NCBI GenBank assembly: GCA_030141605.1 | Contig: JAQGDQ010001764.1 | Span: forward strand, 1-26,324 | Reading direction: 5' to 3' | Source: Tubiluchus corallicola | Taxonomy: Eukaryota; Animalia; Priapulida | Length of the DNA: 26,324 bases | In this document: positions 1 to 24,440 of the stretch, one piece after another | Layout of the letters: every line of letters begins with the position of its first letter | How positions within the stretch are numbered: position 1 is the first letter of the stretch | Made by a program: the position numbers and the translations under genes | Notes under the pieces: generated by a model | The model's input: the letters and a program-made list of their open reading frames with translations, nothing else | What the model was told of the DNA's origin: nothing | Database searches by the model: none

Positions 1-2268
1 ACTCGCTTTACTTAAATGAAAAAATGATTATAGTTATGCATGCTTCTGTAGATAACTTAATGTAAATAAGGATGAAGTAAATGATGTAATAATTTGAGTA
101 GTGCGAGGTGAGTGTACGACCATACGGTCATTAACAAACTCACCTTACTTAAATGAAAAAATGATTATAGTTATGGATGCTTCTGTAGGTAACTTAATGT
201 AAATAAGGATGAAGTAAATGATGTAATAATTTGAGTAGTGCGAGGTGAGTGTACGACCATACGGTCATTAACAAACTCGCTTTACTTAAATGAAAAAATG
301 ATTATAGTTATGCATGTTTCTGCAGATAACTTAATGTAAATAAGGATGAACTAAATGATGTAATAATTTGAGTAGTGCGAGGTAAGTGTACGACCATACG
401 GTCATTAACACACTCACCTTACTTAGATGAAAAAATGATTATAGTTATGCATGTTTCTGCAGATAACTTAATGTAAATAAGGATGAAGTAAATGATGTAA
501 TAATTTGAGTAGTGCGAGGTAAGTGTACGACCATACGGTCATTAACACACTCACCTTACTTAAATGAAAAAATGATTATAGTTATGCATGTTTCTGCAGA
601 TAACTTAATGTAAATAAGGATGAAGTAAATGATGTAATAATTTGAGTAGTGCGAGGTGAGTGTACGACCATAAGGTCTTTAACACACTCACCTTACTTAA
701 ATGAAAAAATGATTATAGTTATGGATGCTTCTGTAGGTAACTTAATGTAAATAAGGATGAAGTAAATGATGTAATAATTTGAGTAGTGCGAGGTGAGTGT
801 ACGACCATACTACGGTCATTAACAAACTCGCTTTACTTAAATGAAAAAATGATTATAGTTATGGATGCTTCTGTAGGTAACTTAATGTAAATAAGGATGA
901 AGTAAATGATGTAATAATTTGAGTAGTGCGAGGTAAGTGTACGACCATACGGTCATTAACACACTCACCTTACTTAGATGAAAAAATGATTATAGTTATG
1001 CATGTTTCTGCAGATAACTTAATGTAAATAAGGATGAAGTAAATGATGTAATAATTTGAGTAGTGCGAGGTGAGTGTACGACCATACGGTCATTAACACA
1101 CTCACCTTACTTAAATGAAAAAATGATTATAGTTATGCATGTTTCTGCAGATAACTTAATGTAAATAAGGATGAAGTAAATGATGTAATAATTTGAGTAG
1201 TGCGAGGTGAGTGTACGACCATACGGTCATTAACACACTCACCTTACTTAAATGAAAAAATGATTATAGTTATGCATGCTTCTGTAGATAACTTAATGTA
1301 AATAAGGATGAAGTAAATGATGTAATAATTTGAGTAGTGCGAGGTGAGTGTACGACCATACGGTCATTAACACACTCACCTTACTTAAATGAAAAAATGA
1401 TTATAGTTATGCATGCTTCTGTAGATAACTTAATGTAAATAAGGATGAAGTAAATGATGTAATAATTTGAGTAGTGCGAGGTGAGTGTACGACCATACGG
1501 TCATTAACACACTCACCTTACTTAAATGAAAAAATGATTATAGTTATGCATGCTTCTGTAGATAACTTAATGTAAATAAGGATGAAGTAAATGATGTAAT
1601 AATTTGAGTAGTGCGAGGTGAGTGTACGACCATACGGTCATTAACACACTCACCTTACTTAAATGAAAAAATGATTATAGTTATGCATGCTTCTGTAGAT
1701 AACTTAATGTAAATAAGGATGAAGTAAATGATGTAATAATTTGAGTAGTGCAAGGTGAGTGTACGACCATACGGTCATTAACACACTCACCTTACTTAAA
1801 TGAAAAAATGATTATAGTTATGCATGCTTCTGTAGATAACTCAATGTAAATAAGGATGAAGTAAATGATGTAATAATTTGAGTAGTGCGAGGTGAGTGTA
1901 CGACCATACGGTCATTAACACACTCACCTTACTTAAATGAAAAAATGATTATAGTTATGCATGCTTCTGTAGATAACTTAATGTAAATAAGGATGAAGTA
2001 AATGATGTAATAATTTGAGTAGTGCGAGGTGAGTGTACGACCATACGGTCATTAACACACTCACCTTGCTTAAATGAAAAAATGATTATAGTTATGCATG
2101 CTTCTGTAGATAACTTAATGTAAATAAGGATGAAGTAAATGATGTAATAATTTGAGTAGTGTGAGGTGAATGTACGACCATACGGTCATTAACACACTCA
2201 CCTTGCTTAAATGAAAAAATGATTATAGTTATGCATGCTTCTGTAGATAACTTAATGTAAATAAGGAT
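1..2268. repeat. 137-bp tandem satellite, ~16.5 copies, truncated by the window start
   Basis: Unit start actc(gct/acc)ttacttaaatg recurs at 1, 138, 275 (period 137). Copies are near-identical, with a 3-bp duplication (catactacgg) in the copy near 810. Confidence 0.98.
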
Positions 2269-2359
2269 TGTGAAAGTTATTTATGAAGTCGAAATTGAAC
2301 ACTTGTAGAAAACAACTAAACACCAGATTACATGTTTGCCGAAAACTGAAACACTTTTA

Positions 2360-3058
2360 TTACAATAAGTACACTACATAGTTATAGGTAACATGACTGC
2401 TGCACTGAGGATCCTTGGATAAGACTATGATGGGGTAGGAAATTGCCACCATCTGTGTTAGGTGCGTCTCAATGATTCCAAGGGTTTGCCACTCTTTTAA
2501 AGAGTCTCTGTATCGTTGTTGTCGTTCTGGAGGCAACCTGTAGAAAGATCGACTATGTGCCAAGGCTTGTTGCTTAGTGAACTGTGGACGTTCGAACCCA
2601 GCCCATGGCAAAGTAGTCTCGTATCGACCATCAATGTGTTTGATGGATAAAGGAAACTCGTCCTTTTCCGTGTCAGGATGAATGTTCATGGACTCCAACT
2701 GCCACCAAGATTCACAGATATTGGCATCTGCATTCCTAGAGTACAGAGTGCGTACAAGAGGAACCAAGGAGGAATGTTGTGACAGGGAGTTAGGAACGCA
2801 ACCACTCAATGTCCAACCGAAGATGGTAGGAATCAGCATAAGATTGGAGTGGAAGATGGGAGCATTAGAGGTAAAGATGTGAGGAAGGGCATCATTACCA
2901 ACCAATACATCAATAGGCAATTGTAATTGACTGTAATCATCAGCATAATCTAAACCTTTTGGTAACGTAGTTAAGCACGACAATTCAACACCCTGAAGGG
3001 GTGAACATATGAAGGGAACAACCCAACAATTCATAAAATACCATTGATCATCATACAT
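2360..3058 (-). mobile_element. Degenerate BEL/Pao LTR-retrotransposon pol fragment (protease-to-RT linker region)
   Basis: Minus-strand translation has PIDVLVGND, LIPTIFGWTLSG, WWQLESMNI, DGRYETTLPW and YRDSLKEWQTLGIIE, in the order typical of BEL/Pao polyproteins. The expected (Y/F)LPHH motif is present in a shifted frame (DGGNFLPHHSLIQG, ~2412-2453), so the copy is frameshifted and truncated. No LTRs seen. Confidence 0.85.
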
Positions 3059-3132
3059 ACTACGCAGTTTGAACTCATATTTCTGTCTGTTAATTGAGGA
3101 AGTATTCTTCCCACCAAAAGTTTAAACTTGAA

Positions 3133-3220
3133 ACCCATCCAAGTACTAACCAGGCTCTACGTTGCTTAACTTCGGTGATCAAACGAGAACCGGTGTTTTC
3201 AACGTGATATGGCCGTAGAC
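3133..3220 (-). pseudogene. 5S rRNA pseudogene (5' ~88 nt, 3'-truncated)
   Basis: Reverse complement reads gtctacggccatatcacgttgaaaacaccggttctcgtttgatcaccgaagttaagcaacgtagagcctggttagtacttggatgggt, an invertebrate-type 5S sequence. Similarity stops after box C and the last ~30 nt are missing. Confidence 0.93.
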
Positions 3221-3419
3221 ATATCGTACATACATATATTCGTACACACATACATATAATACACACATACACACGTATGTAAGAATAGATGAATATTGAT
3301 TTCACGTCGATTTTAAAAACATACAACTACAAGTTACAATAGCTTGTCTCACTAACGAATAAATCAAACTATTCAGCTTCGGTTAGAAAGTAATTAATTT
3401 AAATAGTGAACGCTTAATA

Positions 3420-4007
3420 AAGGATAAGAAAAGGGGCACCTGAAGTTGGTTTCAGAAAAATCGCCTCAAAAAATAATATTACTTTACAGCAATTTTATGC
3501 GAATATCGTACTCGTGTTGAAAGTAATTTTCGTTTGTTTTCATTTTAAATCTCCCTTTTCGGCGGCGCCATTACATGACGTCATATACGCACCACGTAAA
3601 TCAGGGGAAGAAAAGGAAATGTTACATTATGACCCAAAAACTTTCCGTGCAAATCTATATTACTTAGCATTTCGTTTACCTGCTGGAAAGACTTATGTAA
3701 CTAGCCTCATAATTTAAAATGTTTGAGCCAATTGGTAAAATGTCGCTGACTCACCATCCAGGGTGCGCCACTCACCTGCCAAACTGCATTTTTACTCTTA
3801 TTGACAAGATACGGTAATTTAAAACTTTACATAATCAGCAACATGTATGCTACGAATGCTCTGATTATTTTTTCAATGTTACATTGTTACACTTTACTCA
3901 ATGTTATCAAAACTTGTTTCAAACGACCTACCATTGAAATAGCTGCACCTAACGGTCACTGCGGGAGTTTAAATTTACATGTTTTATACAGCGTTACAGC
4001 CGACGCA
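3420..4007 (+). repeat. Dispersed repeat, copy 1 (copy 2 at ~23515-24108, same orientation)
   Basis: Colinear matches along ~590 bp, e.g. aagaaaaggggc-cctgaag, tttgttttcattttaaatctccc, ccaattggtaaaa-gtcgctgactcacc, gctacgaatgctctgattatttttt, gcgggagtttaaatttaca. Confidence 0.9.
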
Positions 4008-4714
4008 AGCCCTGCATGCAAAAGGCAGTACGTAACTGATATTCTTGTGCTTTAAGAACAAACTGATTTAATAAAATTATGAAAAAGCTTCAACTTTAAA
4101 AATATAAGGTAAAATCTACACCATAGCACGAATAATAAGAATCATTGCAAGAACAGCATGTACAACGTACACGCTAAAGCCTAGGACACCTCAAGCGTGG
4201 GGGGGAGGGGGGCATTGCTGACTGTAAAACAGGAGACCAGGACGCCTGTAAATCTAATTTTAAATTGGCTCCTCATTTGAGATAAAAGGATCTCTGTTGG
4301 AGGCCTTTTATTTGAGACAAAGGGCCCTTGTTTGAAGCCCTTTATTTGAGATAATGGCCGCTTTTTGAAGCCATTTTTTTTAAACACTGGGCCCCCAGCT
4401 ACGCAAATGTAGCTGAAATATATTCGAGACGTGGGAGAGCAGATTAGAGGGTGACTCCATCTGACGGGACCCCATATTTTATTAGCTTAAGGGTCACAAA
4501 AGGTCATAATCGGGCCCTGTGTTGAATCAAGTAAACGAAGAGCCCATTTCGTTAATTGGATATTTAATGAGCTAATTTGCATAATTTCATCAATTAGGCA
4601 AAAATTTTACATGGAAAATTTTCATAGTGAGTTGCCACCACACTTGCTAAGATGATTGTCTCGGTAAAGAACAAAGGTCCAGTGATATATTACAAAGTTA
4701 CTAATACTGACCAT

Positions 4715-4826
4715 ATCTACGGCCATATCACGTTGAAAACATGGGTTCTCGTCTGATCACCGAAGTTAAGTAAAGTAGTACCTGGTTAGCATTGTATCGC
4801 CTAGGAATACCAGGTGAAGTAGGCTT
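4715..4826 (+). pseudogene. Degenerate near-full-length 5S rRNA copy, possibly the head of a 5S-derived SINE
   Basis: atctacggccatatcacgttgaaaacatgggttctcgtctgatcaccgaagttaag...cgcctaggaataccaggtgaagtaggctt. The box C region is partly deleted and there is no oligo-T terminator after it. Confidence 0.88.
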
Positions 4827-5870
4827 GCGGGATGCCCACACTGTATCTCGACACTAGGCGGAGGAGTTGCACAAGCAGCCAACGGCTAGAGGGTGGAGGA
4901 GGTCAAGTGATCCAACGGCCATGTGTAGAGGAGTAAACCTTCCAAATCAGGAGTGGAGCCTCGAAGGCGGACCAGTGCAGCATGCTCACTGACCCCGGCA
5001 GCTCCTGCAGCCAACCTGGTGCCAAACGTATCGCTCTGCTTTGCTTTGGGCTACACCAGGAAGGAAGAGAGGGGGTCCCTGTTGTCTGGCAACTCAGGAT
5101 CTCCATACACCTTGCCCAGGCGTGCACTCCAGTGGTTCAAGGATCGGACAGCTCAGCCACAGTCGACGCTGCAGCTCCATCAATGTGATCAATAACTGAC
5201 TCTCTTGGCGCACACTCCATTGTCTTCCGAGACAGAAGGATGCCAACCACTAATACTGAGCATTGATGCTGATGCTGATAGCCCTAGCTGTAATCCTAAT
5301 CCTAACCCAATTAGTAATCCGTTTCTCGAACTAATTTCTTGTGTGTGGAGAATTGTAAACTTTATCTGCCATAATTTTGCTTGGCAGCAATTTCGATTAT
5401 TTAACGATTGTTTTCCTATGCAATTGTAAACAATTATATATATTACGAATGAGAAATGCTTAGGTTGCTTTTGTCGTGTAAATAATTATTGTTGCCATGC
5501 TTTATTTGAGTTAATATATTATTTATGCTGTTGAGTTTTTATGAGAGGGGGTTAAAGATGAAAGGCTGGGAGAGAGAGAACGGCTATGCAGTAAAGACTT
5601 TGCTACTTGGTACAAAAACACAAACTTAAAAGTACTATAATTTATCCTTACCAAATTTTCCGCATAGTGGAATCTCCCACCGTCATTATGGCGTTTGAAA
5701 ATTTACCCCCCCCCCTAAATTTGTTTAGTTATTGTCCGATTCAAAAACCATGGAATGAGAGACTCTAGGCCTACGTTGCTTAGCTTAGTTTGTTGAAGCT
5801 GCTTTTGGAAGGTGTGTTGAATATCTGAAAAAGGAAAAAGTTGAGGGACTAGGTTGAGGACCCTGAAACA

Positions 5871-5924
5871 ATGACGTCACTGGTTGTGCTGATTTGCATC
5901 TTTTGCATAGTGAACAATTTTCAG
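5871..5924 (+). CDS. Small secreted Cys-rich peptide gene, coding exon 1 (signal peptide MTSLVVLICIFCIVNNFQ)
   Basis: aaacaATG start context, 18 codons with a hydrophobic core, strong donor cag|gtgaga, phase 0 matching the next exon. Confidence 0.75.
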
Positions 5925-6468
5925 GTGAGAATTTTACAACAGGTAACGCAAGTAGTTTTACAACAGGTAACAACAAAACAAATTTATTTTCAATGTCTGC
6001 AAGAATGAGATCTTAAAACTATTTGTGTTTAAAGGAAGACAGGATGATTTTTCATATACTCCCCAATTTTCAAATCCGATAAAAGGTCTACATTTTAATG
6101 CAATTAATACTGCAATGGCGTTTCTCAAATTAAATAATAGATTAAAATCTTAATTAACGGCGGGCGAGCCGAACTATTGATGACATCACAAACTAACATA
6201 ATTTTCAAAAGCAAAAATATTTGACGAGCGTGTTTGTGAAAGCGAGAATTAATTGTAGTACAGTGCTAAAATATTCACGTTTGCCGGTCTTAGTGCTTCG
6301 CTAAGCCGCGCGTAACTTAGAAAGTTTAACAAAATTTGAGTATCCGAGGTAATTATTATTTAATCGTAGCTTTGATTCAAAAATCCCATTGTAGTGTTCA
6401 ATATTTTTGAGCATTCTTTATTTTGAGCTAATGTCTACACAACTGTCCAGTTTTTCTTTTAAGGACCC

Positions 6469-7310
6469 GATGATTGTGTAAACACGAGTTCACAATAAAG
6501 TACGCTCTAAAATATTGAAAACTACAACAGCTTTTTTTAAATCAAAGCTTAGATTAAATAATAATTACCTCGGATACTCAACTTTCGTTAAACTTTCAAA
6601 GCTACTCGCGGCTTGGTGAATCTACTAAGATTGGCAACGGCGCTTTTTTGTCACGTGCACGTGGCCGACAAACAGAAGCCGGTACCGTGATAAGCATGAT
6701 CATGAACTGTTGTGTTAGTTTCTGACGTCATATGATGCAGAGCCCATTTTCGAGCTATCACGCGTTTAAGCAGTAACACTTACGCAAACGTGCTTGACGC
6801 GCAAGGGAAGACGCTTGACATCGCACAAACTGTGGTTAGTTTCTGACGTAAGCAATAGCTGTGTTTGGTTGCCGCTAATTAACTTTGTAAGCTAATTATT
6901 CAAATGTAAGAAACAATTGCTAACTTTTACAGGCAAGAAAATGTACATTTTGGACAGTAAAATAAAATGAGATTGAGTCTAAAGATTGAGTCCCTTGCAC
7001 GTCAAGCACATTTACGATTGGTGTCACGAAAATGGGCTCTGCATCATATGACGTCAGAAACTAACACAGCAGTTCATGATCATGGTTATCACGGTACCGC
7101 CTTCTATTTGTCGGCCACGTGCACGTGACAAAAAAGCGCCGCTGCCAATCTTAGTAGATTCACTGAGCCGCGAGTAGCTTTGAAAGTTTGACAAAGTTTG
7201 AGTATCCGAGGTAATTATTATTTAATCTAAGCTTTGATGTAAAAAAAGCTATTGTAGTTTTCAATATTTTAGAGCATTCTTTATTCTGAACTCGTGTTTA
7301 CACAATCATC
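6469..7310. mobile_element. Foldback/MITE-like long inverted repeat (arms 6469-6808 and 6991-7310), with a more diverged third partial copy at ~6150-6430
   Basis: Left arm gatgattgtgtaaacacgagttca...gtgcttgacgcgcaaggga is the reverse complement of right arm tcccttgcacgtcaagcac...tgaactcgtgtttacacaatcatc. 6283-6430 repeats part of the right arm directly (tttgagtatccgaggtaattattatttaatc). Confidence 0.9.
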
Positions 7311-7370
7311 CGCTTTTCCATTAAGTTTACATCTTCACTCAATGGTCACTATTATTATTATTATTAACAG

Positions 7371-7500
7371 ACTGCTCTGGGCTACGACGACTGCAGGGAC
7401 GACTCTGATTGTTCTCACACTGACTGCTGTCAAAACACCGTCATATACGTTCCATACAGAACAATCGGAGGGCAGATAAGAGTTGCCACGAAGCATATAA
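7371..7500 (+). CDS. Small secreted Cys-rich peptide gene, coding exon 2 (TALGYDDCRDDSDCSHTDCCQNTVIYVPYRTIGGQIRVATKHI)
   Basis: Acceptor ttaacag| and consensus donor |gtaagt. 130 nt, open in phase 0 and ending in phase 1. C-x5-C-x4-CC motif. More GC-rich than its flanks. Confidence 0.8.
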
Positions 7501-8223
7501 GTAAGTTTGAAGTTAAACATATTACATCACTGTGCGTTCAGAGTTAACTGCTGGTCAACAAGTCGACAAGAAAGTGAAAACTCTGACAGTTGCTGCGCAT
7601 TGTTGCCAGTGGGCCAGTGACGTAGTAAGTGCTTGTGGCGGAAGGGGGTGAAAAAACTTCTGGCGCCCTACCCTTTTAATGTTTTTGTCTTTTGTTGCAT
7701 TCTTGAAGCCGCAAACTGTGCTTTTTTGCGTCCCTTAACGCGACTTTCCTTTTTCGACATGATGGGGTAAAGATCATGCTGAGTTTGATTTGTGGTACTG
7801 CAGCAGAGTAACTCTTTTCTATCCATTAATTAATCGCAACACGACAGTCATTAAACATTCAGCTCCGGCATTAAAACTTGCAAAGATTATGAAAGATACA
7901 GAACACTTCAGGTTTTCACAATAATACAATCAGCATTTGGAGAAACGTCATTGTTTCTCACAAAATTATCCATCTGCTAAGCCACATGATACCCTATATA
8001 CACGGTTAAGTAACAATATTAGCCTTTTCCTAATCTGTACGTAGTAATTAAGTCGGTTAGGGTGATCTCTGACTAGGCAGTTTTATTGTAGGCTAAAAAC
8101 TTTTATTAATGTCGCATTAGTAATTAATAATTAACAGTCATTGAACTCTAGAAGAGTTCTCCCCTTCTCAAACTTGGGCCGGGAGGAGGTTGCCCATTGT
8201 CGGCCCCAGTTTGCTATAGGCAT

Positions 8224-10120
8224 TTGGTTGTTGCTGCGTGAATGCTTCGGCGTGTTACTCTAGACACTTAACCGAACTCGACATTCAACAGTAAGTTGTT
8301 GGTCTGCTGTGTCTAATGTGAACGCTTCGACGAGTTACTCTAGACACGTCTTAACCGAACTCGACACTCAACCGCAAGTTGTTGGTCTGCTGTGACTAGT
8401 GTGAACGCTTCGACGAGTTACTCTAGACACTTCTTAACCGAACTCGACACTCAACAGTAAGTTGTTGGTCTGCTGTGTCTAGTGTGAACGCTTCGGCGAG
8501 TTACTCTAGACACTTCTTAACCGAACTCGACACTCAACAGCAAGTTGTTGGTCTGCTGTGTCTAGTGTGAACGCTTCGACGAGTTACTCTAGACACTTCT
8601 TAACCGAACTCGACACTCAACAGCGTGTTGCTGGTCTGCTGTGTCTAGTGTGAACGCTTCGGCGTGTTACTCTAGACACTTCTTAACCGAACTCGACACT
8701 CAACAGTAAGTTGTTGGTCTGCTGTGTCTAATGTGAACGCTTCGGCGAGTTACTCTAGACACTTCTTAACCGAACTCGACACTCAACCGCAAGTTGTTGG
8801 TCTGCTGTGTCTAGTGTGAACGCTTCGGCAAGTTACTCTAGACACTTCTTAACCGAACTCGACACTCAACAGCAAGTTGTTGGTCTGCTGTGTCTAGCGT
8901 GAATGCTTCGGCAAGTTACTCTAGACACTTCTTAACCGAACTCGACACTCAACAGCAAGCTGTTGGTCTGCTGTGTCTAGTGTGAACGCTTCGGCGAGTT
9001 ACTCTAGACACTTCTTAACCGAACTCGACACTCAACCGAAAGTTGTTGGTCTGCTGTGACTAGTGTGAACGCTTCGGCGAGTTACTCTAGACACTTCTTA
9101 ACCGAACTCGACATTCAACAGTAAGTTGTTGGTCTGCTGTGTCTAATGTGAACGCTTCGGCGAGTTACTCTAGACACTTCTTAACCGAACTCGACACTCA
9201 ACAGCAAGTTGTTGGTCTGCTGTGTCTAGTGTGAACGCTTCGGCGAGTTATTCTAGACACTTCTTAACCGAACTCGACATTCAACAGCAAGTTGTTGGTC
9301 TGCTGTGTCTAATGTGAACGCTTCGACGAGTTACTCTAGACACTTCTTAACCGAACTCGACACTCAACAGTAAGTTGTTGGTCTGCTGTGTCTAGTGTGA
9401 ACGCTTCGACGAGTTACTCTAGACACTTCTTAACCGAACTCGACACTCAACAGCAAGTTGCTGGTCTGCTGTGTCTAGTGTGAACGCTTCGACGAGTTAC
9501 TCTAGACACTTCTTAACCGAACTCGACACTCAACAGTAAGTTGTTGGTCTGCTGTGTCTAGTGTGAACGCTTCGGCGTGTTACTTTAGACACTTCTTAAC
9601 CGAACTCGACACTCAACAGCAAGTTGTTGATCTGCTGCGTCTAGTGTGAACGCTTCGGCGAGTTACTCTAGACACTTCTTAACCGAACTCGACACTCAAC
9701 AGCAAGTTGTTGGTCTGCTGTGTCTAATGTGAACGCTTCGACGAGTTACTCTAGACACTTCTTAACCGAACTCGACACTCAACAGCAAGTTGTTGGTCTG
9801 CTGTGTCTAGTGTGAATGCTTCGGCGTGTTACTCTAGACACTTCTTAACCGTACTCGACACTCAACAGCAAGTTGTTGGTCTGCTGTGTCTAGCGTGAAT
9901 GCTTCGGCGTGTTACTCTAGACACTTAACCGAACTCGACACTCAACTGCAAGTTGTTGGTCTGCTGTGACTAGTGTGAACGCTTCGGCGTGTTACTCTAG
10001 ACACTTCTTGACCGAACTGGACACTCAACCGCAAGTTGTTGGTCTGCTGTGACTAGTGTGAACGCTTCGGCGAGTTACTCTAGACACTTCTCAACCGAAC
10101 TCGACACTCAACAGCAAGTT
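8224..10120. repeat. 83-bp tandem satellite, ~23 copies, in intron 2 of the peptide gene
   Basis: Unit gttgttggtctgctgtgtctagtgtgaacgcttcggcgagttactctagacacttcttaaccgaactcgacactcaacagcaa recurs at e.g. 8461 and 8544 (period 83). Confidence 0.98.
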
Positions 10121-10239
10121 TTACTCTCTCGTCTGAACGCGCTTTAACGAGTTACTTGACGAATTAAGTTAACGTGGTTTTATTCGCCGACCAATAGTGA
10201 ATCTTTTTAGTAATTGATGCACTGTAACGTTTAACTCAA

Positions 10240-10910
10240 GTGAATGAGAAAATGAACGAATCAATAATATAGTATGAATGAATGAATAAATGAATGAATG
10301 GACAGATGAATAAGTGAATGAATGAATGAATGAATGAATGAATGAATGAATGAATGAATGAATGAATGAATGAATGAATGAATGAATGACTGAATAGACA
10401 GCTGAATGAATGAATGAACAAATTATTAAAAGAATGAATGAACGAATGAATGAACGAATGATGAAAGAAAGAAAGAAAGAAAGAATAAATGAACAAGTGA
10501 ATGAATGAATGCATGAACGAGTGAATAAAGGAGTATGAATGAATGAATTAAGGAATGAATAAATGAGTGAAAGAATGTATGAATGAATGAATAAATAAAT
10601 AAATAAATGAATGAATGAATGAATGAATGAATGAATAAATGAATAAATAAATAAATGAATGAATGAATAAATAAATGAATGAATGAATGAATGAATGGAT
10701 GAATAAATAAATGAATGAATGAATGAATGAATGGACGGATGAATAAGTGAATGAATGAATGAATGGATAAGCGAATAGATGAATAAGTGAATGAATGAAT
10801 GAGTGAATGAATGAATGAGTGAATGAATGAATGATTGAATAAATGAACAAGTGGACGGATGAAAAAATGAATGAATGGGCGGATGAATGACCCAATGAAT
10901 GAATGAATAA
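10240..10910. repeat. Imperfect (GAAT)n/(AAAT)n microsatellite
   Basis: Direct reading. Source of the HSFI-repeat ORFs on the minus strand. Confidence 0.98.
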
Positions 10911-10982
10911 ATTAGCGAAATAGTGTATTAATAAAAGAATAAAGCGTCTTCAGTTGATTAAAGGATGTATGCATCTTTTCAG

Positions 10983-11005
10983 AGAAATGCAGGCGGTGCC
11001 CTTAA
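10983..11005 (+). CDS. Small secreted Cys-rich peptide gene, coding exon 3 (KKCRRCP-stop)
   Basis: Acceptor catcttttcag|. Phase-1 join gives a+ag aaa tgc agg cgg tgc cct taa, which supplies Cys5 and Cys6. AATAAA occurs downstream at 11394 and 11490. Confidence 0.7.
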
Positions 11006-11393
11006 CTTTGACATTTCATACGAATCCAAATTGCACTGGAGGTTACATGGATCCTGGAAACCAAGCAACTAGTAGTGGATGCACCATTGCTGGGTGGATT
11101 TGATGAAAAAATTTATGAAAAATAGAAAGAATGCTAATTTAACGTTAATTAAACATGCTGTTTACTGAGACCAGACGACATTTCGATACAATTTTCGTTG
11201 TCAATGTTCAAAATGAAGCCAAGACGAAATAATCGGTACATTTACGTTCCTGCAATTACCAAGACACAAAAAAACATTGATGTCACGTGACGTCTGCACT
11301 CAGTAAAGAGCATGTTGATTTATACAGGCTGAATCTTTCATGTATTTAATATTTTAATTGTATAAAATTTGAGGAAATTGTTTGCAATTACTG

Positions 11394-11399
11394 AATAAA
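11394..11399 (+). promoter_or_regulatory. Candidate polyadenylation signal of the peptide gene (alternative at 11490-11495)
   Basis: AATAAA ~390 nt after the stop codon. The motif is common in AT-rich DNA, so support is weak. Confidence 0.35.
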
Positions 11400-11486
11400 C
11401 CGATTTCAATTAAGAGAACATGTATTGCTGTGTTCCTATAATCAGTTAAGCAAACTTAGTTCCAACCAACAACAAGTTGCGTGACT

Positions 11487-11637
11487 GGTAATAAAGTTAA
11501 AGGAAAAGTCACCACAATTTTTGCCATGAAAATGTTAACGTTAGTGTTAGGGATTAGGATTAGAGTTAGGGTAAAGGTTATTTCGTTTTACCAGTGCCTC
11601 TTTTACCAGTGCCTCTTTTACCTGTGACTTTTTTACC
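11487..11637. repeat. Short element with inverted ends, a degenerate TTAGGG-like tract and 15-bp direct repeats
   Basis: aaaagtcac (11504) and gtgactttt (11624) are inverted. Internal ttagtgttagggattaggattagagttaggg, and ttttaccagtgcctc x2.5. Confidence 0.5.
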
Positions 11638-11880
11638 TGCATTAGTTTTATGATCGTATGTCATTGATGTTGACGTTGCGTGTTGAATGGTTTTGTTAAT
11701 ATTCCCAGTTCATCGTTTCGTACAGAATTCTTCAAGCACAAGACAACCCTTCACTTAGAGAAGGCTCAAAAAAATTCGTCTTAAATGATATACTAGTTTA
11801 AATAAGTACCACTATACCACTTTATACCAGTTGAGCAATACGTAACTTCAATTGTACTTTAGTTTCAGTTACGTATTGCT

Positions 11881-11977
11881 CATAGGAAAAACGTTACAAA
11901 AAATCGGGACCGGTGTTGGTGGTTCCTTATAAGCAAGTGTCCTTTATAAGCGAGTACCTTATAACCAAGGTTGACTG
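11881..11977 (-). mobile_element. Solo terminal fragment of the Tc1/mariner-type MITE family seen at 17527-18090
   Basis: Ends ...ccttataaccaaggttgactg|ta. Reverse complement aligns with 17527-17606 (cagtcaacct...actcgcttataa...ccaacacc-gtcc-gattttt...tttttcctatg). Confidence 0.8.
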
Positions 11978-12107
11978 TATGTTAAAATGTGGGATGCCTA
12001 AATATACCGTCATTTCACTGGTTGTAACATCTTTGTAAATCTGTAGCAGTTACCACCTTTAGTCACCATTTTTAAACCACCCTTTCGTTTTTTTTCTTTT
12101 CTTGCAG

Positions 12108-12265
12108 TTGCTCCTAATTCGATGACGCACACCTACTTTCCCAGCTATCAGAACGGAACCGAAATCGTCGTCGTCGGACGTTTGTCGGACCCGACTTCTG
12201 CGGGACGATTTTTCGGCAAAGTCGAGGGCAAGGGAGCGTATGGAGTGGTCACCTACGTTACCGAG
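12108..12265 (+). CDS. ITIH-like (inter-alpha-trypsin inhibitor heavy chain family) internal exon A: xAPNSMTHTYFPSYQNGTEIVVVGRLSDPTSAGRFFGKVEGKGAYGVVTYVTE
   Basis: Long polypyrimidine tract plus ttgcag| acceptor and gag|gtaacg donor. Matches the post-vWA ITIH motif T..F..Y..GSEIVVAG[KR]L. Enters in phase 1, exits in phase 0. Confidence 0.9.
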
Positions 12266-12731
12266 GTAACGTCCAGCGCATTGTCTTTGTATTTGGGTGA
12301 AACTCTGGTGATTTTGTGGCATGGGGATCGTCTTTTTGTCGCATCGTCAAGTTTTCTTGTATTATCAATTCAATTCAATTGTAATTTATTTATCTCTTTA
12401 TAATACTACAATAAAACATGATTAATGAAAGAGTCGCTAATAAGTTTTGAAGAATGGTTAAAATGTATAGATAGATCTAGAACTAGAGAAAGGATAGCGA
12501 AAAGACTATAAAGTCACCTAGTCTGCTATACATTAGGTATATACTCTTTCATTCCCTAGGTACCGTACCACAATGTTGTTACCTTACTTCAAACGTATAC
12601 CAATTAGGAAATTTGCTCAGTAATTATATTTAAGATTTAAATATGGTTGTACTTTAGATCAAAACGAAAATGTAAAATTAAAAATTAAGAACTCATTTAA
12701 AGATTATGTTTTCAGATATTACAACACTGTA

Positions 12732-13071: not shown

Positions 13072-13404
13072 TAATTAAATTTAAGATTTAAATATGGTTG
13101 TACTGTAGATCTAAACGAAAATGTAAAATTAAACGTTAAGAACTCATTTAAAGATTATGTTTTAAGATATCTATTATAGCTTCTTACAACACTGTATAAT
13201 CTAATATAATTACAAGGGAACTACAATGTGTGGTTATTATAAAGTTGAATGTCTGTAGATATGTTACTTTACTAACATCGCATTACCTGTTTTACTAACA
13301 TCTTTATCTTTGTAAACTGTATGTTTTTATACGAAATAAACTCATAATAATAATAATTAGTAGATAAGATTAGAGTATGGCATTCTGACCCACAAAATGT
13401 CTAG

Positions 13405-13846
13405 CAGGAGTGTGCAAATTATCTGACTAGCAGGGCCACATTAAACTTTCCGGCAATTCCTGCGGGCCACAGGCAGTTTGATCAAGGAATCAAGTACAGA
13501 AAGGCCTAATAACGATTTTTTTGCATCCGACCTGCGTACATTACAAATTTATATTACAAACCATATATTTCTACTTTCAGGACAGATACTGGTAATTTCA
13601 TTACAATGCATATTAGTAATGTGTATCACACAGTCTGTGTAGTACAGTGACATTAAGCTACAACCGCCGATCTAGTAGAAAAAACTACCAGCACTGTCTT
13701 TGGGATCGTGGCATGGACTTCAGCTGGATACACTCAATTAATCGCCCGGGCCTCACTTTCATTAGGTTGACAAATCTCTTCGCGGGCCGCACAAATTCTC
13801 TCGGCGGGCCGTAAGTGGCCCGCGGGCCGCAATTTGCACACCCCTG
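13405..13846 (-). mobile_element. hAT-type MITE, copy 1 (inverted relative to 21781-22280)
   Basis: TIRs caggagtgtgcaaatt / aatttgcacacccctg, subterminal gcgggccg repeats. The internal sequence is the reverse complement of copy 2. TSD is degenerate. Confidence 0.9.
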
Positions 13847-13898: not shown

Positions 13899-14066
13899 AA
13901 TGAGGTGGACACGGTACCTTCACAACAGACTGGTGAGAGGAAAGGTTTCGTTGAGAGAACCTGGGCCTATCAATGGGTGCAGGAGCTGCTAAATAAGAGA
14001 AACGTTGCACCTGCCGAGGAGGAAAAGCAGAAATTGCACGATCAGGCTTTAGAGGTCTCTCTAAAG
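13899..14066 (+). CDS. ITIH-like exon B: NEVDTVPSQQTGERKGFVERTWAYQWVQELLNKRNVAPAEEEKQKLHDQALEVSLK
   Basis: ttttag| acceptor and aag|gtgcgc donor, phase 0/0. Matches the ITIH motif ERLWAYLTIQQLL...AL.LSLKY. Confidence 0.93.
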
Positions 14067-14824: not shown

Positions 14825-14915
14825 TACAACTTTGTCATTCCGGGTCTCACCGCTCTCATCGTCGTGGAGCCGGATCGTGACGAAGTCCGCGGCTTGGAGA
14901 ACCTTGGCGACGAAC
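14825..14915 (+). CDS. ITIH-like exon C: YNFVIPGLTALIVVEPDRDEVRGLENLGDE
   Basis: tttcag| acceptor and aac|gtacgt donor, phase 0/1. Continues SLK|Y and matches the ITIH motif Y.FVTPLTSMVVTKP. Confidence 0.88.
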
Positions 14916-15376
14916 GTACGTTTTTTCATTGTTTTAGTGAATGCAAGCAGTATCTTAGATGCTTTGCTGAATAACTGTCTGTTTGACTGTGTGAATGACC
15001 TTGGTGATGAACGTACGTTTTTTCATTGCTTTAGTGATTGTAATCAGTATCTTGGATGCTTTGCTGAATGACTGTGTGTTTGACTGTGTGAATGACCTTG
15101 GCGACGAACGAACGGTTTTGTCATTGCTTTAGTGATTGTAATCAGTATCTTAGATGATTGGCTGAATGACTGTGTGTTTGACTGTGTGAATGACCTTGGC
15201 AACGAACGTACGGTTTTTTCATTGCTTTAGTGATTGTAATCAGTATCTTAGATGCTTTGCTGCATGACTGTGTGTTTGACTGTGTGAATGACCTTGGTGA
15301 CGAACGTACGTTTTTTTCATTGCCTTAGTGATTGTAATCAGTATCTCAGATGCTTTGCTGCATGACTGTGTGTTTG
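14901..15376. repeat. 97/98-bp tandem repeat, ~4.9 copies, overlapping the 3' end and donor of exon C
   Basis: accttgg unit starts at 14901, 14998, 15095, 15193 and 15291. Confidence 0.95.
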
Positions 15377-17143: not shown

Positions 17144-17233
17144 CCGAACACGATAACGAGCGTTACAACACGAGATACGCATCTCCCAAATCCACCGCTG
17201 GGCGGGGACGCGGAGGCGGGCGTGTCCATTCCG
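17144..17233 (+). CDS. Probable ITIH-like linker exon D: (P)EHDNERYNTRYASPKSTAGRGRGGGRVHS
   Basis: tttttag| acceptor and ccg|gtaatt donor, GC-rich. Phase 1/1 bridges exons C and E and gives V-DNDPHF. No conserved motif, as expected for the variable ITIH linker. Confidence 0.65.
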
Positions 17234-17526
17234 GTAATTTGTCGGTCGACTACACTGATTATGTTGACTATTCAGATTATGTCGACTATTCAGATTGGGT
17301 CGTCTACACTGCTTATGTCGAAAGAGCAGATGTTCAACACTTTGTTTACGTAACATGTCTAGCTCTTATCTTTCTCGTTTGTTTTTGAATTTCTTTTTCC
17401 AACTATGTGCAAGTCTTTTGTGTTTTTGAGACGTTTGCGTCGCTTCGTAACTTTTATCTAACGTACTTTGCATAGTACGCCCTACTTCCGTATTTAAAAT
17501 ACCGGGTGTTTTAGTACTTTTAGATA

Positions 17527-18090
17527 CAGTCAACCTCGGGTGTAAGATACTCGCTTATAAGGGACCGCCAACACCAGTCCTGATTTTTCATAATGTTTTT
17601 CCTATGTAAAAATCTTCGTATATAAGGTACTCGGATATAAGGGACTTTCGCTTATAAGTTACTACCAACACCAGACCTGATTTTTCGTAGTGTTTTTCCT
17701 ATGTAAAAACCTTCGTATATAAGGTACTCGGATATAAGAGATTTTCGGTTATAACGGACGATATCTTCAGGTCCCCCATAATAGAAACCCAGGTAAATTA
17801 CCTCGCATATAAGGGATCCTATGATCAAAGCGAAATTGATCGATTTTTAATCTCAATTTTTCGCAAACTCGACCTTCGAACAGTTCGGTTTCCATGGTCA
17901 CATACATTTCGCATCACTGAAGCAGCTTCCTACATACCGTTTGCACTGAATGTGTAGCAATAATCCATAAAAATATGGGTAAAAGTACAGAAAAGTACAG
18001 GACTTGATACACCCTTGGTCTGACTTCACTTCGGATATAAGGGACGGTTTTTTCCAATCCGGAGGTGTTGCTTATATCCAAGGTTGACTG
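17527..18090. mobile_element. Tc1/mariner (pogo/Tigger-like) MITE, 564 bp, with an internal tandem duplication
   Basis: TIRs cagtcaacctcgg / ccaaggttgactg with TA flanks. Subterminal ctcggatataagg repeats. The block ccaacaccag...ttataa is duplicated at ~17568 and ~17665. Confidence 0.9.
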
Positions 18091-19235: not shown

Positions 19236-20717
19236 ACCACTGGGCGTCCGTTCCATCCCGTCAACATCGACTACGTCTGCACCACTGCGTGTCTGTTCCA
19301 TTCCGTCAATGTTGACTACGTCTGCACCATTGAGTGTCCGTTCCATCCCGTCAACGTCGACTACGTCTGCACCATTGAGTGTCCGTTCCATCCCGTCAAC
19401 GTCGACTACGTCTGCACCACCGGGCGTCCGTTCCATCCCGTCAATGTCGACTACGTCTGCACCACTGGGCGTCCGTTCCATTCCGTCAATGTTGACTACG
19501 TCTGCACCACTGGGTGTCCATTCCATCCCGTCAACGTCGACTACGTCTGCACCACTGGGTGTCTGTTCCATTCCGTCAATGTTGACTACGTCTGCACCAT
19601 TGAGTGTCCGTTCCATCCCGTCAATGTTGACTACGTCTGCACCATTGAGTGTCCGTTCCATCCCGTCAACATCGACTACGTCTGCACCTCCGGGCGTCCG
19701 TTCCATCCCGTCAACATCGACTACGTCTGCACCTCCGGGCGTCCGTTCCATTCCGTCAATGTTGACTACGTCTGCACCACTGGGTGTCTGTTCCATTCCG
19801 TCAATGTTGACTACGTCTGCACCATTGAGTGTCCGTTCCATCCCGTCAATGTTGACTACGTCTGCACCATTGAGTGTCCGTTCCATCCCGTCAACGTCGA
19901 CTACGTCTGCACCTCCGGGCGTCCGTTCCATCCCGTCAACGTCGACTACGTCTGCACCACTGGGTGTCTGTTCCATTCCGTCAATGTTGACTACGTCTGC
20001 ACCATTGAGTGTCCGTTCCATCCCGTCAATGTTGACTACGTCTGCACCACAGGGCGTCCGTTCCATCCCATCAATGTCGACTACATCTGCACCACTGGGC
20101 GTCCGTTCCATCCCGTCAACGTCGACTACGTCTGCACCACCGGGCGTCCGTTCCATCCCGTCAACGTCGACTACGTCTGCACCACTGGGCGTCCATTCCA
20201 TCCCTTCAACGTCGACTACACGTCTGCACCACTGGGCGTCCGTTCCATCCCGTCAACGTCGACTACGTCTGCACCACTGGGCGTCCATTCCATCCCTTCA
20301 ACGTCGACTACGCCTGCACCACCGGGCGTCCATTCCATCCCGTCAACGTCGACTACGTCTGCACCACTGGGTGTCTGTTCCATTCCGTCAATGTCGACTA
20401 CGTCTGCACCACTGGGTGTCCGTTCCATCCCGTCAACATCGACTACGTCTGCACCACTGGGCGTCCGTTCCATCCCGTCAATGTCGACTACGTCTGCACC
20501 ACTGGGCGTCTGTTCCATTCCGTCAATGTCGACTACGTCTGCACCACTGGGTGTCTGTTCCATTCCGTCAATGTCGACTACGTCTGCACCACTGGGCGTC
20601 CGTTCCATCCCGTCAACGTCGACTACGTCTGCACCACTGGGCGTCCATTCCATCCCTTCAACGTCGACTACGCCTGCACCACTGGGCGTCCGTTCCATCC
20701 CGTCAACGTCGACTACA
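19236..20717. repeat. GC-rich 45-bp minisatellite, ~33 copies
   Basis: Unit ccactgggcgtccgttccatcccgtcaacgtcgactacgtctgca gives 15-aa periodicity in the ORF track. A single 2-bp insertion lies at ~20220. Confidence 0.98.
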
Positions 20718-21780: not shown

Positions 21781-22280
21781 CAGGGGTGTGCAAATTGCGG
21801 CCCGCGGGCCACTTGCGACCCGCCGAGAGATTTTGTGCGGCCCGCGAAGAGGTTTGTCAACCTAATGAATGTGCGGCCCGGGCGATTAATTGAGTGTATC
21901 CAGCTGAAGTCCGTGCCACGATCCCAAAGATAGTCCGGGTAGTTTTTTCTACTAGATCGGATGCCATTAACCCTTACAAGACGGTTGTAGCTAAATGTCA
22001 CTGTACTACACAGACTGTGTGATACACATTACTAATATGCATTGTAATAAAATTACCACTATCTGTCCTGAAAGTAGAAATATATGGTGTGTAATATAAA
22101 TTTCAATAACTTCTAAAATAGTTTCTTGAGTGTAGTAGTAATGATGTACACAGGTCGGATGCAAAAAAATCGTTATTAGGCCTTTCTGTACTTGGCTCCC
22201 TGATCAAACTGCCTGTGGCCCGCAGGAATTGCGGGAAAGTTTAATGTGGCCCTGCTAGTCAGATAATTTGCACACGCCTG
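21781..22280 (+). mobile_element. hAT-type MITE, copy 2, 500 bp
   Basis: TIRs caggggtgtgcaaatt / aatttgcacacgcctg. Perfect 8-bp TSD ccgtatga at 21773-21780 and 22281-22288. Confidence 0.96.
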
Positions 22281-23240
22281 CCGTATGATCTGCAAAATAG
22301 TGTGTGTTTTTTGTCAAATAGTGCAAAATTAGTTATGTAATTTTTGCTAACATCTGCGCATTTTTTGCTACAATATATTTCTACATAAGTTTTATTAAAG
22401 ATTGCTTAATATTAAACGTTTTACATTATTACAGATTATCATGACATTCAAAATTATATGCTTATATTTTATATAGTTTTATTTGTAGTCAAAATTAATA
22501 TTTTAATAAATGTATCTCATAGTAGTAACTCGTTTTCTATTGAATTTTCTCAAATAGCTAAGAAATATACATAAAACAGCAATTTATAAGCAATTGTGTT
22601 GTCTATATTTGCATGCTGTAGAATTCGTTTCATAACTTGTTTTCATTTCTCTCATTAGATGGCAGCACATGAATACATTGCATGTATGGGTACACAATTG
22701 TTAAACAAGAGGTTATACACTGTTATTAGTGTGACTGCACCCCATAATTGTGATCATGAATTTTTTTCTGGAAATCAACTGCTTTATTTTATAATGATGT
22801 TTAAAACCAGTGAGCATACTTTAAAATATTATATTAGCTTCTTTGCTTGTACACCACAGATACTTTATTTTGCTGATTAACTTATAAAAGTCTATTGAAT
22901 TTTTGAAATGAAATTTTATTTGATTTTTTTTGCACTTTTGTGCAATTTACTTTAAACATTGCTTAATTATAGGTTTTTTGCTGATTAAAAAACAGTAAAT
23001 ATTTATAGACATCGTAGTTTTTGCAAGAGTTTTGACCGAAATTTTAATTCTGTGTCGTTTAAGTAGATTGCTCTGCGTGTTGAAAGTGATAAAATATTTT
23101 TTGGCTATTAGATTTGCCATCAAACGATTTCTTTTTTAGCCATCGTGTCGCGATGAAACTGACCGTAAAGTAGTTTTGAAACAGGTATTTCTTTATTTTT
23201 CTTATTAGTTATTTATTCTACTTCTTTCTTTATTTGTTAG

Positions 23241-23354
23241 TTGACAACGACCCTCATTTTGTCGTGAAGTTGAAAGGAAGTAAAATGGCGGTGTGCTTCA
23301 CGATCAACGGGAAACCCGGACAGATCCTGAATCTGATCAGCGACGCCAAGAACG
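23241..23354 (+). CDS. ITIH-like exon E: (V)DNDPHFVVKLKGSKMAVCFTINGKPGQILNLISDAKN
   Basis: Polypyrimidine tract plus ttag| acceptor and acg|gtgagc donor, phase 1/1. Matches the ITIH motif VD.DPHFII.....LCFNI...PG..L.L..D. Confidence 0.95.
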
Positions 23355-23514
23355 GTGAGCGCAATTTAAACTTTAATAGATTTATTTCCCAGTGATGGTT
23401 GCATGCTGCAGAAAATGAGGGGAAAAGTAAAGGAGGATAAAAGAGGTTAGTGAGATGAGTTTTTTCAAACTCGAAACTAGAAGTTTTACTCTCAAGTCGC
23501 GGGAGAAATATTTA

Positions 23515-24108
23515 ACGGACAAGAAAAGGGGCGCCTGAAGTAGGTTTCAGAAAAATCGCCTTAAAAAATTATATTACTTTGCAGCAATTTTATGCGTTTA
23601 TCTTACTCGCACTGAAAGGAATTTTAGTTTGTTTTCATTTTAAATCTCCCGCAATACTGTTCCGAAGTCGCCATTACATGACATCATGTAGCAAACGTAA
23701 ATCAAGGGAAGAAAAGGCAATGTTAAATTATGTCTCAAAAGCCTTTCCGTGCAAATCTATATTACTTAGATTTTCGCTTACCTACTAGAAAGACTTATGT
23801 AACTAGAAAAGAAAATTATTAATTATTTAAAATGTTTTCACCAATTGGTAAAACGTCGCTGACTCACCCTCCAGGGAGCACCACTCACTAACCAAAAAAT
23901 GTATTTTTAATCTTATTGACAAGATACAGTAATTTTAAATTTTATTTAGTTAGAGGCTTGTGTGCTACGAATGCTCTGATTATTTTTTCAAACTTTACAA
24001 AATGTTATTTAAACTTGTTTCAAATGACCTGTCGTGAAAATGGCTGCGTCTAACGGTCATCGCGGGAGTTTAAATTTACATATTTTATACAGCGTGACTG
24101 CCGACGCT
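23515..24108 (+). repeat. Dispersed repeat, copy 2 (see 3420-4007)
   Basis: Colinear similarity with 3420-4007 along its whole length. Confidence 0.9.
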
Positions 24109-24230: not shown

Positions 24231-24440
24231 GTTTTTACGTCACCGGAGAAATCATTGGTGTTTCCAGCAAACTCCACGGAAAAGGATCAAAAGACAGGAC
24301 TTACTTCGGTACCGTCGTCGTATCCGTGAACGGTTACAGTCTGCAGTTTTCGCCCGACGAGATAACGACGAGCAACGGCCTGCGTCTGAGCTGGAAGAAA
24401 CATTCTGGTCTACTCCGGAGGGATGTTAGCATGAAGATCG
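24231..24440 (+). CDS. ITIH-like exon F (C-terminal ITI heavy-chain domain): (G)FYVTGEIIGVSSKLHGKGSKDRTYFGTVVVSVNGYSLQFSPDEITTSNGLRLSWKKHSGLLRRDVSMKI
   Basis: tttgtag| acceptor, phase 1. Matches the ITIH motif G..VNGQ.IG.......RTYF........I......SW. The 3' boundary is uncertain (gtactg at 24441 or gttagc at 24425). The gene continues beyond the window. Confidence 0.9.

Follow-up and report, generated by a model that had tools for sequence, protein, structure and literature searches.

Genes that lie within an intron of another gene on the same strand form a minority class: by published counts, some 29% of the nested genes in fly belong to it, and of these roughly 27% contain introns of their own. 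When active, a nested gene can shorten the transcript of its host by intronic polyadenylation, as reported for H13/Mcts2 (PMC13309782) and for human genes (PMC3192792). Here we describe a probable member of this class in the priapulid Tubiluchus corallicola, in a window of 26,324 nucleotides (nt) covering positions 1 to 26,324 of contig JAQGDQ010001764.1 (assembly GCA_030141605.1). In this window, a three-exon gene for a predicted cysteine-rich peptide precedes the back half of an ITIH-like gene on the + strand, which carries all nine exons (three of the peptide gene and six of the ITIH-like gene). The layout is confirmed as real: the peptide stop codon lies 1,102 nt from the first ITIH-like acceptor at 12108, as the first-pass annotation of this DNA had noted (1.1 kb). 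The reading that we favour, and consider probable, is that a full-length ITIH gene harbours the peptide gene, nested in the same orientation, in a long phase-1 intron of >12 kb; the exons for the signal, VIT and vWA parts of that ITIH gene would then be found upstream of the window.

The ITIH-like gene shows six exons in the window, namely A (12108..12265, phase 1 in and 0 out), B (13899..14066, 0 to 0), C (14825..14915, 0 to 1), the linker exon D (17144..17233, 1 to 1), E (23241..23354, 1 to 1) and F (24231..24440, 1 to 1), and continues past the window end after exon F. Together they contain 276 codons with no stop, all 12 of their splice dinucleotides are canonical, and their guanine-plus-cytosine (GC) content is 0.49-0.62. 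Exon A had been described as a phase-1 internal exon from the middle of the protein; its phase was confirmed, and its top-ranked match is ITIH1 482-516, in the post-vWA part of HC-Hybrid1, with an E value of only 1.5, nothing at E<=1 and an Atlas score of 0.80 (under 0.9). Exon B, the helical part of HC-Hybrid2, matches ITIH1 chain 547-586 (E 0.0019) and ITIH4 542-580 (E 0.0068), so that both exons present post-vWA hybrid-domain segments, with a weak ranking for exon A. Exon F probably corresponds to the start of the ITI_HC_C domain: it reaches E 3.3e-5 and 24 bits against Pfam ITI_HC_C (PF06668) over model positions 5-76 of 189, below the 27-bit cut-off, and its relative P0001 (54% identity, E 3.4e-13) passes that cut-off with 39.8 bits. 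The other three of the four representative matches of exon F were to fn3, SpaA and DUF4116 repeat proteins and were rejected; no homologue of this exon was found among longer proteins, and its profile retrieved no ITIH match in the PDB. Exon E carries a DPHF motif at 23249, whose Asp-Pro we take to be the ITIH cleavage-site motif ahead of the C-terminal domain, and gave no Pfam, PDB or homologue match. Exon C was recognised by its splice sites, frame, GC content and motifs, and exon D by splice sites, open frame and GC content only; exon C alone had no PDB or Pfam match and exon D no family match. A 98-bp tandem repeat (14901-15376) starts inside exon C and contains four further copies of the exon's last bases and donor, creating decoy donors.

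In human ITIH1, HC-Hybrid1 consists of residues 266-287 and 478-543 and HC-Hybrid2 of residues 45-265 and 544-652, as described for its structure (PMC7170535), and VIT-vWA proteins have been predicted to be knotted (bioRxiv 10.1101/2023.06.16.545156). Because exons A and B map to the second segments of these two hybrid domains, the back half would not be expected to fold alone, and on this structural comparison it is unlikely to work alone. Contigs assembled from reads were compared with the window; runs X1-X3 come from one sample, possibly the window's own source, and are not independent, summed contig depth does not equal copy number, and contigs lose rare variants. In X1, exons A, B and C each stand at a depth of 166-167 at >=88% likeness (record 4 over exon A, record 8 over exons B and C), so that a near-identical parent copy is not visible. 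In a neutral-decay simulation of 4,000 runs, the six exons stayed intact in 3.5% of cases at 6% divergence and in 0.1% with insertions and deletions, and this outcome, together with the lack of a visible parent copy, makes an old orphan duplicate unlikely. An intact single-copy back half is therefore most simply part of a whole gene with its 5' exons somewhere. Among all AG sites of the window, the acceptor of exon A stands at the 99.9th percentile, as expected of a used site (all splice percentiles given here are from a crude score, ranked among all such sites in the window).

About 480 residues (signal, VIT and vWA) are lacking ahead of exon A within the window. The first-pass claim that 1-12107 holds no such exons stood, within the limited power of the scans: none of 128 + strand stop-free frames of at least 20 amino acids outside the satellites matched a VIT or ITIH-type vWA family, and none of nine VIT/vWA motifs was found in six frames with the satellites included (the longest + frames of the satellites, outside the frame scan and inside the motif scan, are of 35, 47 and 32 amino acids). 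One of four ITIH control stretches matched Pfam in the frame scan, and the control motifs of the motif scan were picked with knowledge of the exons, one of them (TYF) matching eight places. A VWA_CoxE match at 6770-6892 (E 0.17) lies within a high-copy inverted-repeat element, has no PDB match and was rejected. No ITIH exon was recognised between 11005 and 12108, where the earlier annotation had said that such exons would speak against a nest; the nine exon-like candidates in 11006-12107 are AT-rich (GC 0.35-0.41) and lie in or beside high-copy repeat bins. The stretch 1..5870, upstream of the peptide gene, likewise has no recognisable ITIH exon; it contains a satellite, a minus-strand frame, two 5S ribosomal RNA (rRNA)-like copies and a repeat shared with 23513-24107. 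It includes a GC-rich stretch at ~4820-5220 (0.55-0.60) with open frames, two of whose three + frames were compared with the PDB and gave no ITIH match at E<=10.

The internal peptide gene appears as a complete unit at the sequence level, with start codon, splice sites, stop codon and poly(A) signal. Exon 1 (5871..5924, donor phase 0) encodes the start codon and a hydrophobic signal-like stretch with a maximum 9-residue Kyte-Doolittle mean of 3.7; exon 2 (7371..7500, donor phase 1) encodes the signal end, Cys1-4 (C-x5-C-x4-CC) and a predicted beta-hairpin; and the coding part of exon 3 (10983..11005, acceptor phase 1) adds Cys5 and Cys6 (C-x2-C) before the stop at 11003-11005. The likely 3' untranslated region (UTR) covers 11006..11495, with the 3' end placed from sequence, and contains the poly(A)-signal hexamers ATTAAA at 11148 and AATAAA at 11394 and 11490. 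The three exons have canonical AG/GT sites and 68 codons with a single stop; the donors are strong (98.5-99.1st percentile), and the exon 3 acceptor lies at the 86.7th. The product is predicted to be a secreted, cysteine-rich peptide of 68 residues whose cysteines stand at 9 and 12 in the signal and at 26, 32, 37, 38, 64 and 67 in the mature part, giving the mature array C-x5-C-x4-CC-x25-C-x2-C. As for the pattern itself, the loose form is weak alone, arising in 33 of 300 shuffles of ~17 kb, and a tighter CxxDxDC..CC form arose in none of 300 but had been picked after the sequence had been seen. Better support comes from the read contigs described below, on the basis of which the peptide gene is probably real at the sequence level.

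By sequence, embedding and fold comparison the peptide is an orphan with no detected relatives. Exon 2 had no Pfam match, no homologue and no PDB sequence match, and its best Atlas score, 0.81 (under 0.9), is a lead only. AlphaFold, run on exon 2 alone, places strands at residues 20-26 and 32-38 (predicted local distance difference test values of 88 and 79 by block; predicted template modelling score 0.34), and a fold search with this model returned no match at E<=0.001. A metagenome locus for the exon 2 frame, one from 133 pattern matches, lies in the opposite frame of a long bacterial-looking open reading frame, which we take to be TonB-receptor-like, and was rejected. From the cysteine pattern only, the peptide may be a disulfide-knotted extracellular ligand, or a defence or toxin-like peptide. 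X1 and X2 contigs show a His-to-Asp change at 7416 in exon 2. The end of exon 1 (5910-5966) contains a small internal duplication that yields four in-frame phase-0 donor candidates, three of them besides the exon's own donor (after 5909, 5942 and 5966). X2 and X3 contigs end at 5913 and resume near 5955, by the table numbers, and we infer a second exon 1 form ~41 nt shorter (lacking 5914-5954) in the read contigs. If 5914-5954 is absent there, a consensus donor GTGAGT follows codon 13 (after 5909) with phase 0 kept, and the window's exon 1 would be the derived form, five codons longer.

Over the peptide gene, X1 depth is ~240-420 at the promoter and exon 1, 159 at exon 2 and 277-590 at exon 3 and the UTR, and X2 follows the same pattern. 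The segment 10922-11321 (exon 3 and UTR) is represented in X1 and X2 mostly by forms that differ by 5-9%, at 1.7-3.5 times the flank depth; the seemingly duplicated segment stops near 11320. At 10954-11102 the window's exact exon 3 letters are missing from the X1 and X2 contigs, and the X1 form has 13 differences in 149 nt (91% identical), with the acceptor and both cysteines kept. Of the four changes that precede its stop, three are synonymous when read in the proposed frame (none and one of four in the other frames), and the fourth replaces Lys by Arg; by these substitutions exon 3 shows signs of coding constraint. In the X1 form the frame continues two residues past the stop and ends at a second one, which the window has as well, and given this second in-frame stop two codons further on, the window's early stop looks derived. 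These data give a hint that the peptide gene is one of a small duplicated family. They suggest about two loci with a common signal exon and a common 3' end, whose copies of exon 2 fall short of 80% likeness; comparable cases are gene families in which the mature exon is hypervariable (PMC4558851).

Under the nested reading, the peptide gene would use its own promoter and its own poly(A) signals, and would probably have reached this site, together with its introns, through DNA-level duplication within a small gene family. Host splicing would bypass the three peptide exons by joining an unseen donor of phase 1 to the acceptor at 12108, which is very strong, and the two genes would stay out of conflict mainly by being expressed in separate cells, a situation that has been reported for nested genes on the host strand. 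Nested genes typically originate as young duplicates, according to the account of their evolution in PMC5174743, and since the peptide gene looks duplicated, this was counted for nesting. Of the 12.1 kb ahead of exon A, 4.8 kb is satellite, and without the peptide gene the host intron need be only ~6.5 kb, near the 6,007 nt of intron D-E, the longest seen in the ITIH-like gene.

Several points weigh against this reading. Neither an upstream host exon nor a splice into 12108 was seen, the nest being deduced from absence, and the host intron would be at least twice the longest intron seen in the ITIH-like gene. An intact single copy is likewise expected of a single-copy gene broken by a recent rearrangement, and the decay test is compatible with such a break, 33-59% of simulated copies being intact at 1% divergence. 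The statement of the first-pass annotation that same-strand nesting is less common than antisense nesting agrees with the fly counts reported in PMC3814207, by which 71.3% of nested genes are opposite-strand and 72.5% of the same-strand ones single-exon. By these counts, same-strand nested genes with introns are selected against, and PMC5174743 gives similar figures; two-thirds of human nested genes are given as opposite-strand (PMC4394429), and a newer mammalian survey reports a slight strand bias only (PMC11694760). The strong peptide donors would compete with host splicing. Among the contigs listed, 11833-11943 is unbridged, and record 3 of X1 has 29 non-fitting letters beyond 11832. In X6, which we guess to be RNA, a contig begins at the exon C acceptor with three unaligned letters before it and six differences in 68 letters (91% identity); its start is a weak hint of a spliced ITIH transcript, and its 91% form could be a paralogue rather than an allele. 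X6 contigs have no cover on the peptide exons or on ITIH exons A and B, and so give no evidence either way there. The open-access literature searched yielded no paper that describes a gene within an ITIH intron or the exon structure of ITIH genes in invertebrates.

The either/or that the first-pass annotation had set up, a nest or a 5'-truncated ITIH copy, stood as a framing, and the evidence leans to nesting. That the ITIH half is an orphan, either a 5'-truncated duplicate or a recently broken gene, standing after a stand-alone peptide gene, is in our judgement unlikely. It would agree with the lack of 5' exons in 12.1 kb, with a truncated repeat end at 11881-11986 that could mark a breakpoint, with a region that has been rearranged, as the end of the duplicated-looking peptide segment near 11320 implies, and with the 91% form of exon C in X6. 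However, X1 shows no second copy at >=88% over exons A-C and an old truncated copy should have decayed, two facts that solely a very recent break of a single-copy gene would fit. A false join in the assembly, located in the satellites or in the repeat that precedes exon A, would make the neighbourhood an artefact; the unbridged stretch 11833-11943 is high-copy, the exon 3 letters of the window are those missing from the X1 and X2 contigs, and the satellites fell outside the contig comparison. Nevertheless, the unbridged gap is only ~110 nt, with X1 contigs covering 11292-11832 and 11944-12380 (the latter with 0 differences), the window contains no N and writes out its 1-2 kb satellites in full, which suggests a long-read assembly, and exons 2 and 3, on either side of the satellites, agree in phase and together yield the complete cysteine array, so that we regard such a join as very unlikely. 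It is highly improbable that short or very diverged ITIH 5' exons were missed within 1-12107, with the peptide gene interleaved among them or the host being an unusual short form: the low power of the scan (one of four ITIH controls matched Pfam), the E value of only 1.5 for exon A and the GC-rich open frames at ~4820-5220 leave room for them, but ~480 residues would have to be placed with none of the nine VIT/vWA motifs found, the two of three GC-rich frames tested had no ITIH match in the PDB, and the candidates in 11006-12107 differ from exons A-F in GC content (0.35-0.41 vs 0.49-0.62) and are repeat-associated.

Two further readings concern splicing between the genes. The first-pass annotation had pointed out that a 7500/12108 junction would yield an in-frame secreted chimera; the arithmetic was borne out, with 338 open codons, but since four of the six ITIH acceptors in the window are phase 1, the commonest phase here, the phase match carries no information. 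The peptide promoter and first exons could be the real ITIH 5' end and the chimera a selected product, which would account for intact ITIH exons without upstream exons and would use a strong exon 2 donor and an acceptor stronger than that of exon 3 (99.9th against 86.7th percentile). We nevertheless consider this very improbable: without Cys5 and Cys6 the product would retain an incomplete array, with four mature cysteines instead of six; its ITIH part would be missing the N-terminal strands that contribute to the two hybrid domains as these are described in PMC7170535; and exon 3 appears to be under coding constraint and is followed by poly(A) hexamers. In a mirror product, which the first-pass annotation did not raise, a host phase-1 donor could be joined to exon 3 as a terminal exon ending at the peptide poly(A) site, much like the intronic polyadenylation reported for nested genes (PMC3192792, PMC13309782). 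Because the host intron, the exon 2 donor and the exon 3 acceptor are all phase 1, four in-frame secreted products are possible, which could be the full ITIH protein, the free peptide, a VIT-vWA front half capped by exon 3, with its two cysteines and its poly(A) site, and a peptide-headed back half. That the peptide gene is wired into host splicing as such a switch seems quite unlikely; if true, a duplicated peptide gene would have given the ITIH gene a regulated way to split its halves.

If nested as we propose, the peptide gene would be one more multi-exon gene on its host's strand, from a disfavoured class, with an orphan cysteine-rich peptide as product. Automated gene prediction will probably merge or divide loci of this kind, and the all-phase-1 layout would make this one a clean case for testing how strong internal exons are skipped by a host. 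The locus would matter more only if RNA gave alternative in-frame products at real levels.

Repeats account for much of the remaining sequence. A 137-bp satellite covers 1-2268, and an 83-bp satellite (8238-10120) forms most of peptide intron 2, together with an ATGA microsatellite at 10274-10912. A very high-copy element fills peptide intron 1 (6281-7325) with nested inverted repeats, whose 297-nt arms are 93% complementary. Just upstream of exon A (11881..11986) lies a truncated end of an inverted-repeat element of high copy number, also present at ~17518-17703; X1 depth in the bin 11851-11983 is 187,154. On the minus strand, 2360-3121 is a 253-codon stop-free frame whose only Pfam match is DUF3106 (E 0.0036), and which resembles a BEL/Pao-type retrotransposon fragment. 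Inverted 5S rRNA-like copies lie at 3104-3220 (-) and 4715-4825 (+), with Rfam scores of 66.4 and 53 bits, and the second is followed by ~400 nt of GC-rich sequence with open frames and no family match, possibly the body of a 5S-derived short interspersed element. Intron D-E contains a 45-bp GC-rich minisatellite of 33 copies (19236-20716), and a similar degenerate 18-bp repeat directly follows exon D (17245-17321). Two repeat pairs were found in the window, 13404-13846 with 21781-22281 (84%) and 3418-4006 with 23513-24107 (81% identity).

Compared with known systems, the ITIH-like gene resembles ITIH heavy chains (ITIH1, PDB 6fpy; ITIH4, PDB 9c4f) in its collinear exon A and B matches, DPHF motif and ITI_HC_C-like exon, and differs from them in that no VIT/vWA exons were found in the window and exon F stays below the Pfam cut-off. 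The peptide has no significant sequence or fold match to any C-C-CC-C-C peptide, and can be compared by pattern. It shares the C-C-CC-C-C order, in a short, predicted secreted peptide, with inhibitor cystine knot (ICK) toxins or knottins, names of which are among the Atlas leads; the knottin disulfide knot links cysteines 1-4, 2-5 and 3-6. Its spacing resembles that of the N-terminal half of the prokineticin/colipase fold. Unlike that fold, for which ten cysteines are reported (PMC6425005), the peptide has six mature cysteines and no Pfam match for exon 2. Mussel MgCRP-I peptides are reported to have the pattern C(X3-6)C(X1-7)CC(X3-4)C(X3-5)C, a dibasic-site pro-region and the whole array in one exon (PMC4558851); our peptide is similar in its predicted signal peptide, its C-C-CC-C-C order and the hint of a family with conserved signal and variable mature exon, and differs in its spacings x25 and x2, outside the consensus, in lacking a dibasic-site pro-region, and in an array split by an intron. 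With respect to gene arrangement, the likeness to H13/Mcts2 is that peptide exon 3 could, by its sequence, serve the host in frame as a phase-1 terminal exon. Mcts2 is an imprinted retrogene; unlike it, the peptide gene has three exons. Fly nested genes differ in one respect, as this locus is known from downstream host exons alone. As reported for same-strand nested genes in fly (Lee and Chang 2013, PMC3814207; Assis 2016, PMC5174743), the peptide gene is short, is probably duplicated, has its own introns, would lie in a long host intron and carries splice sites that would compete with those of the host.

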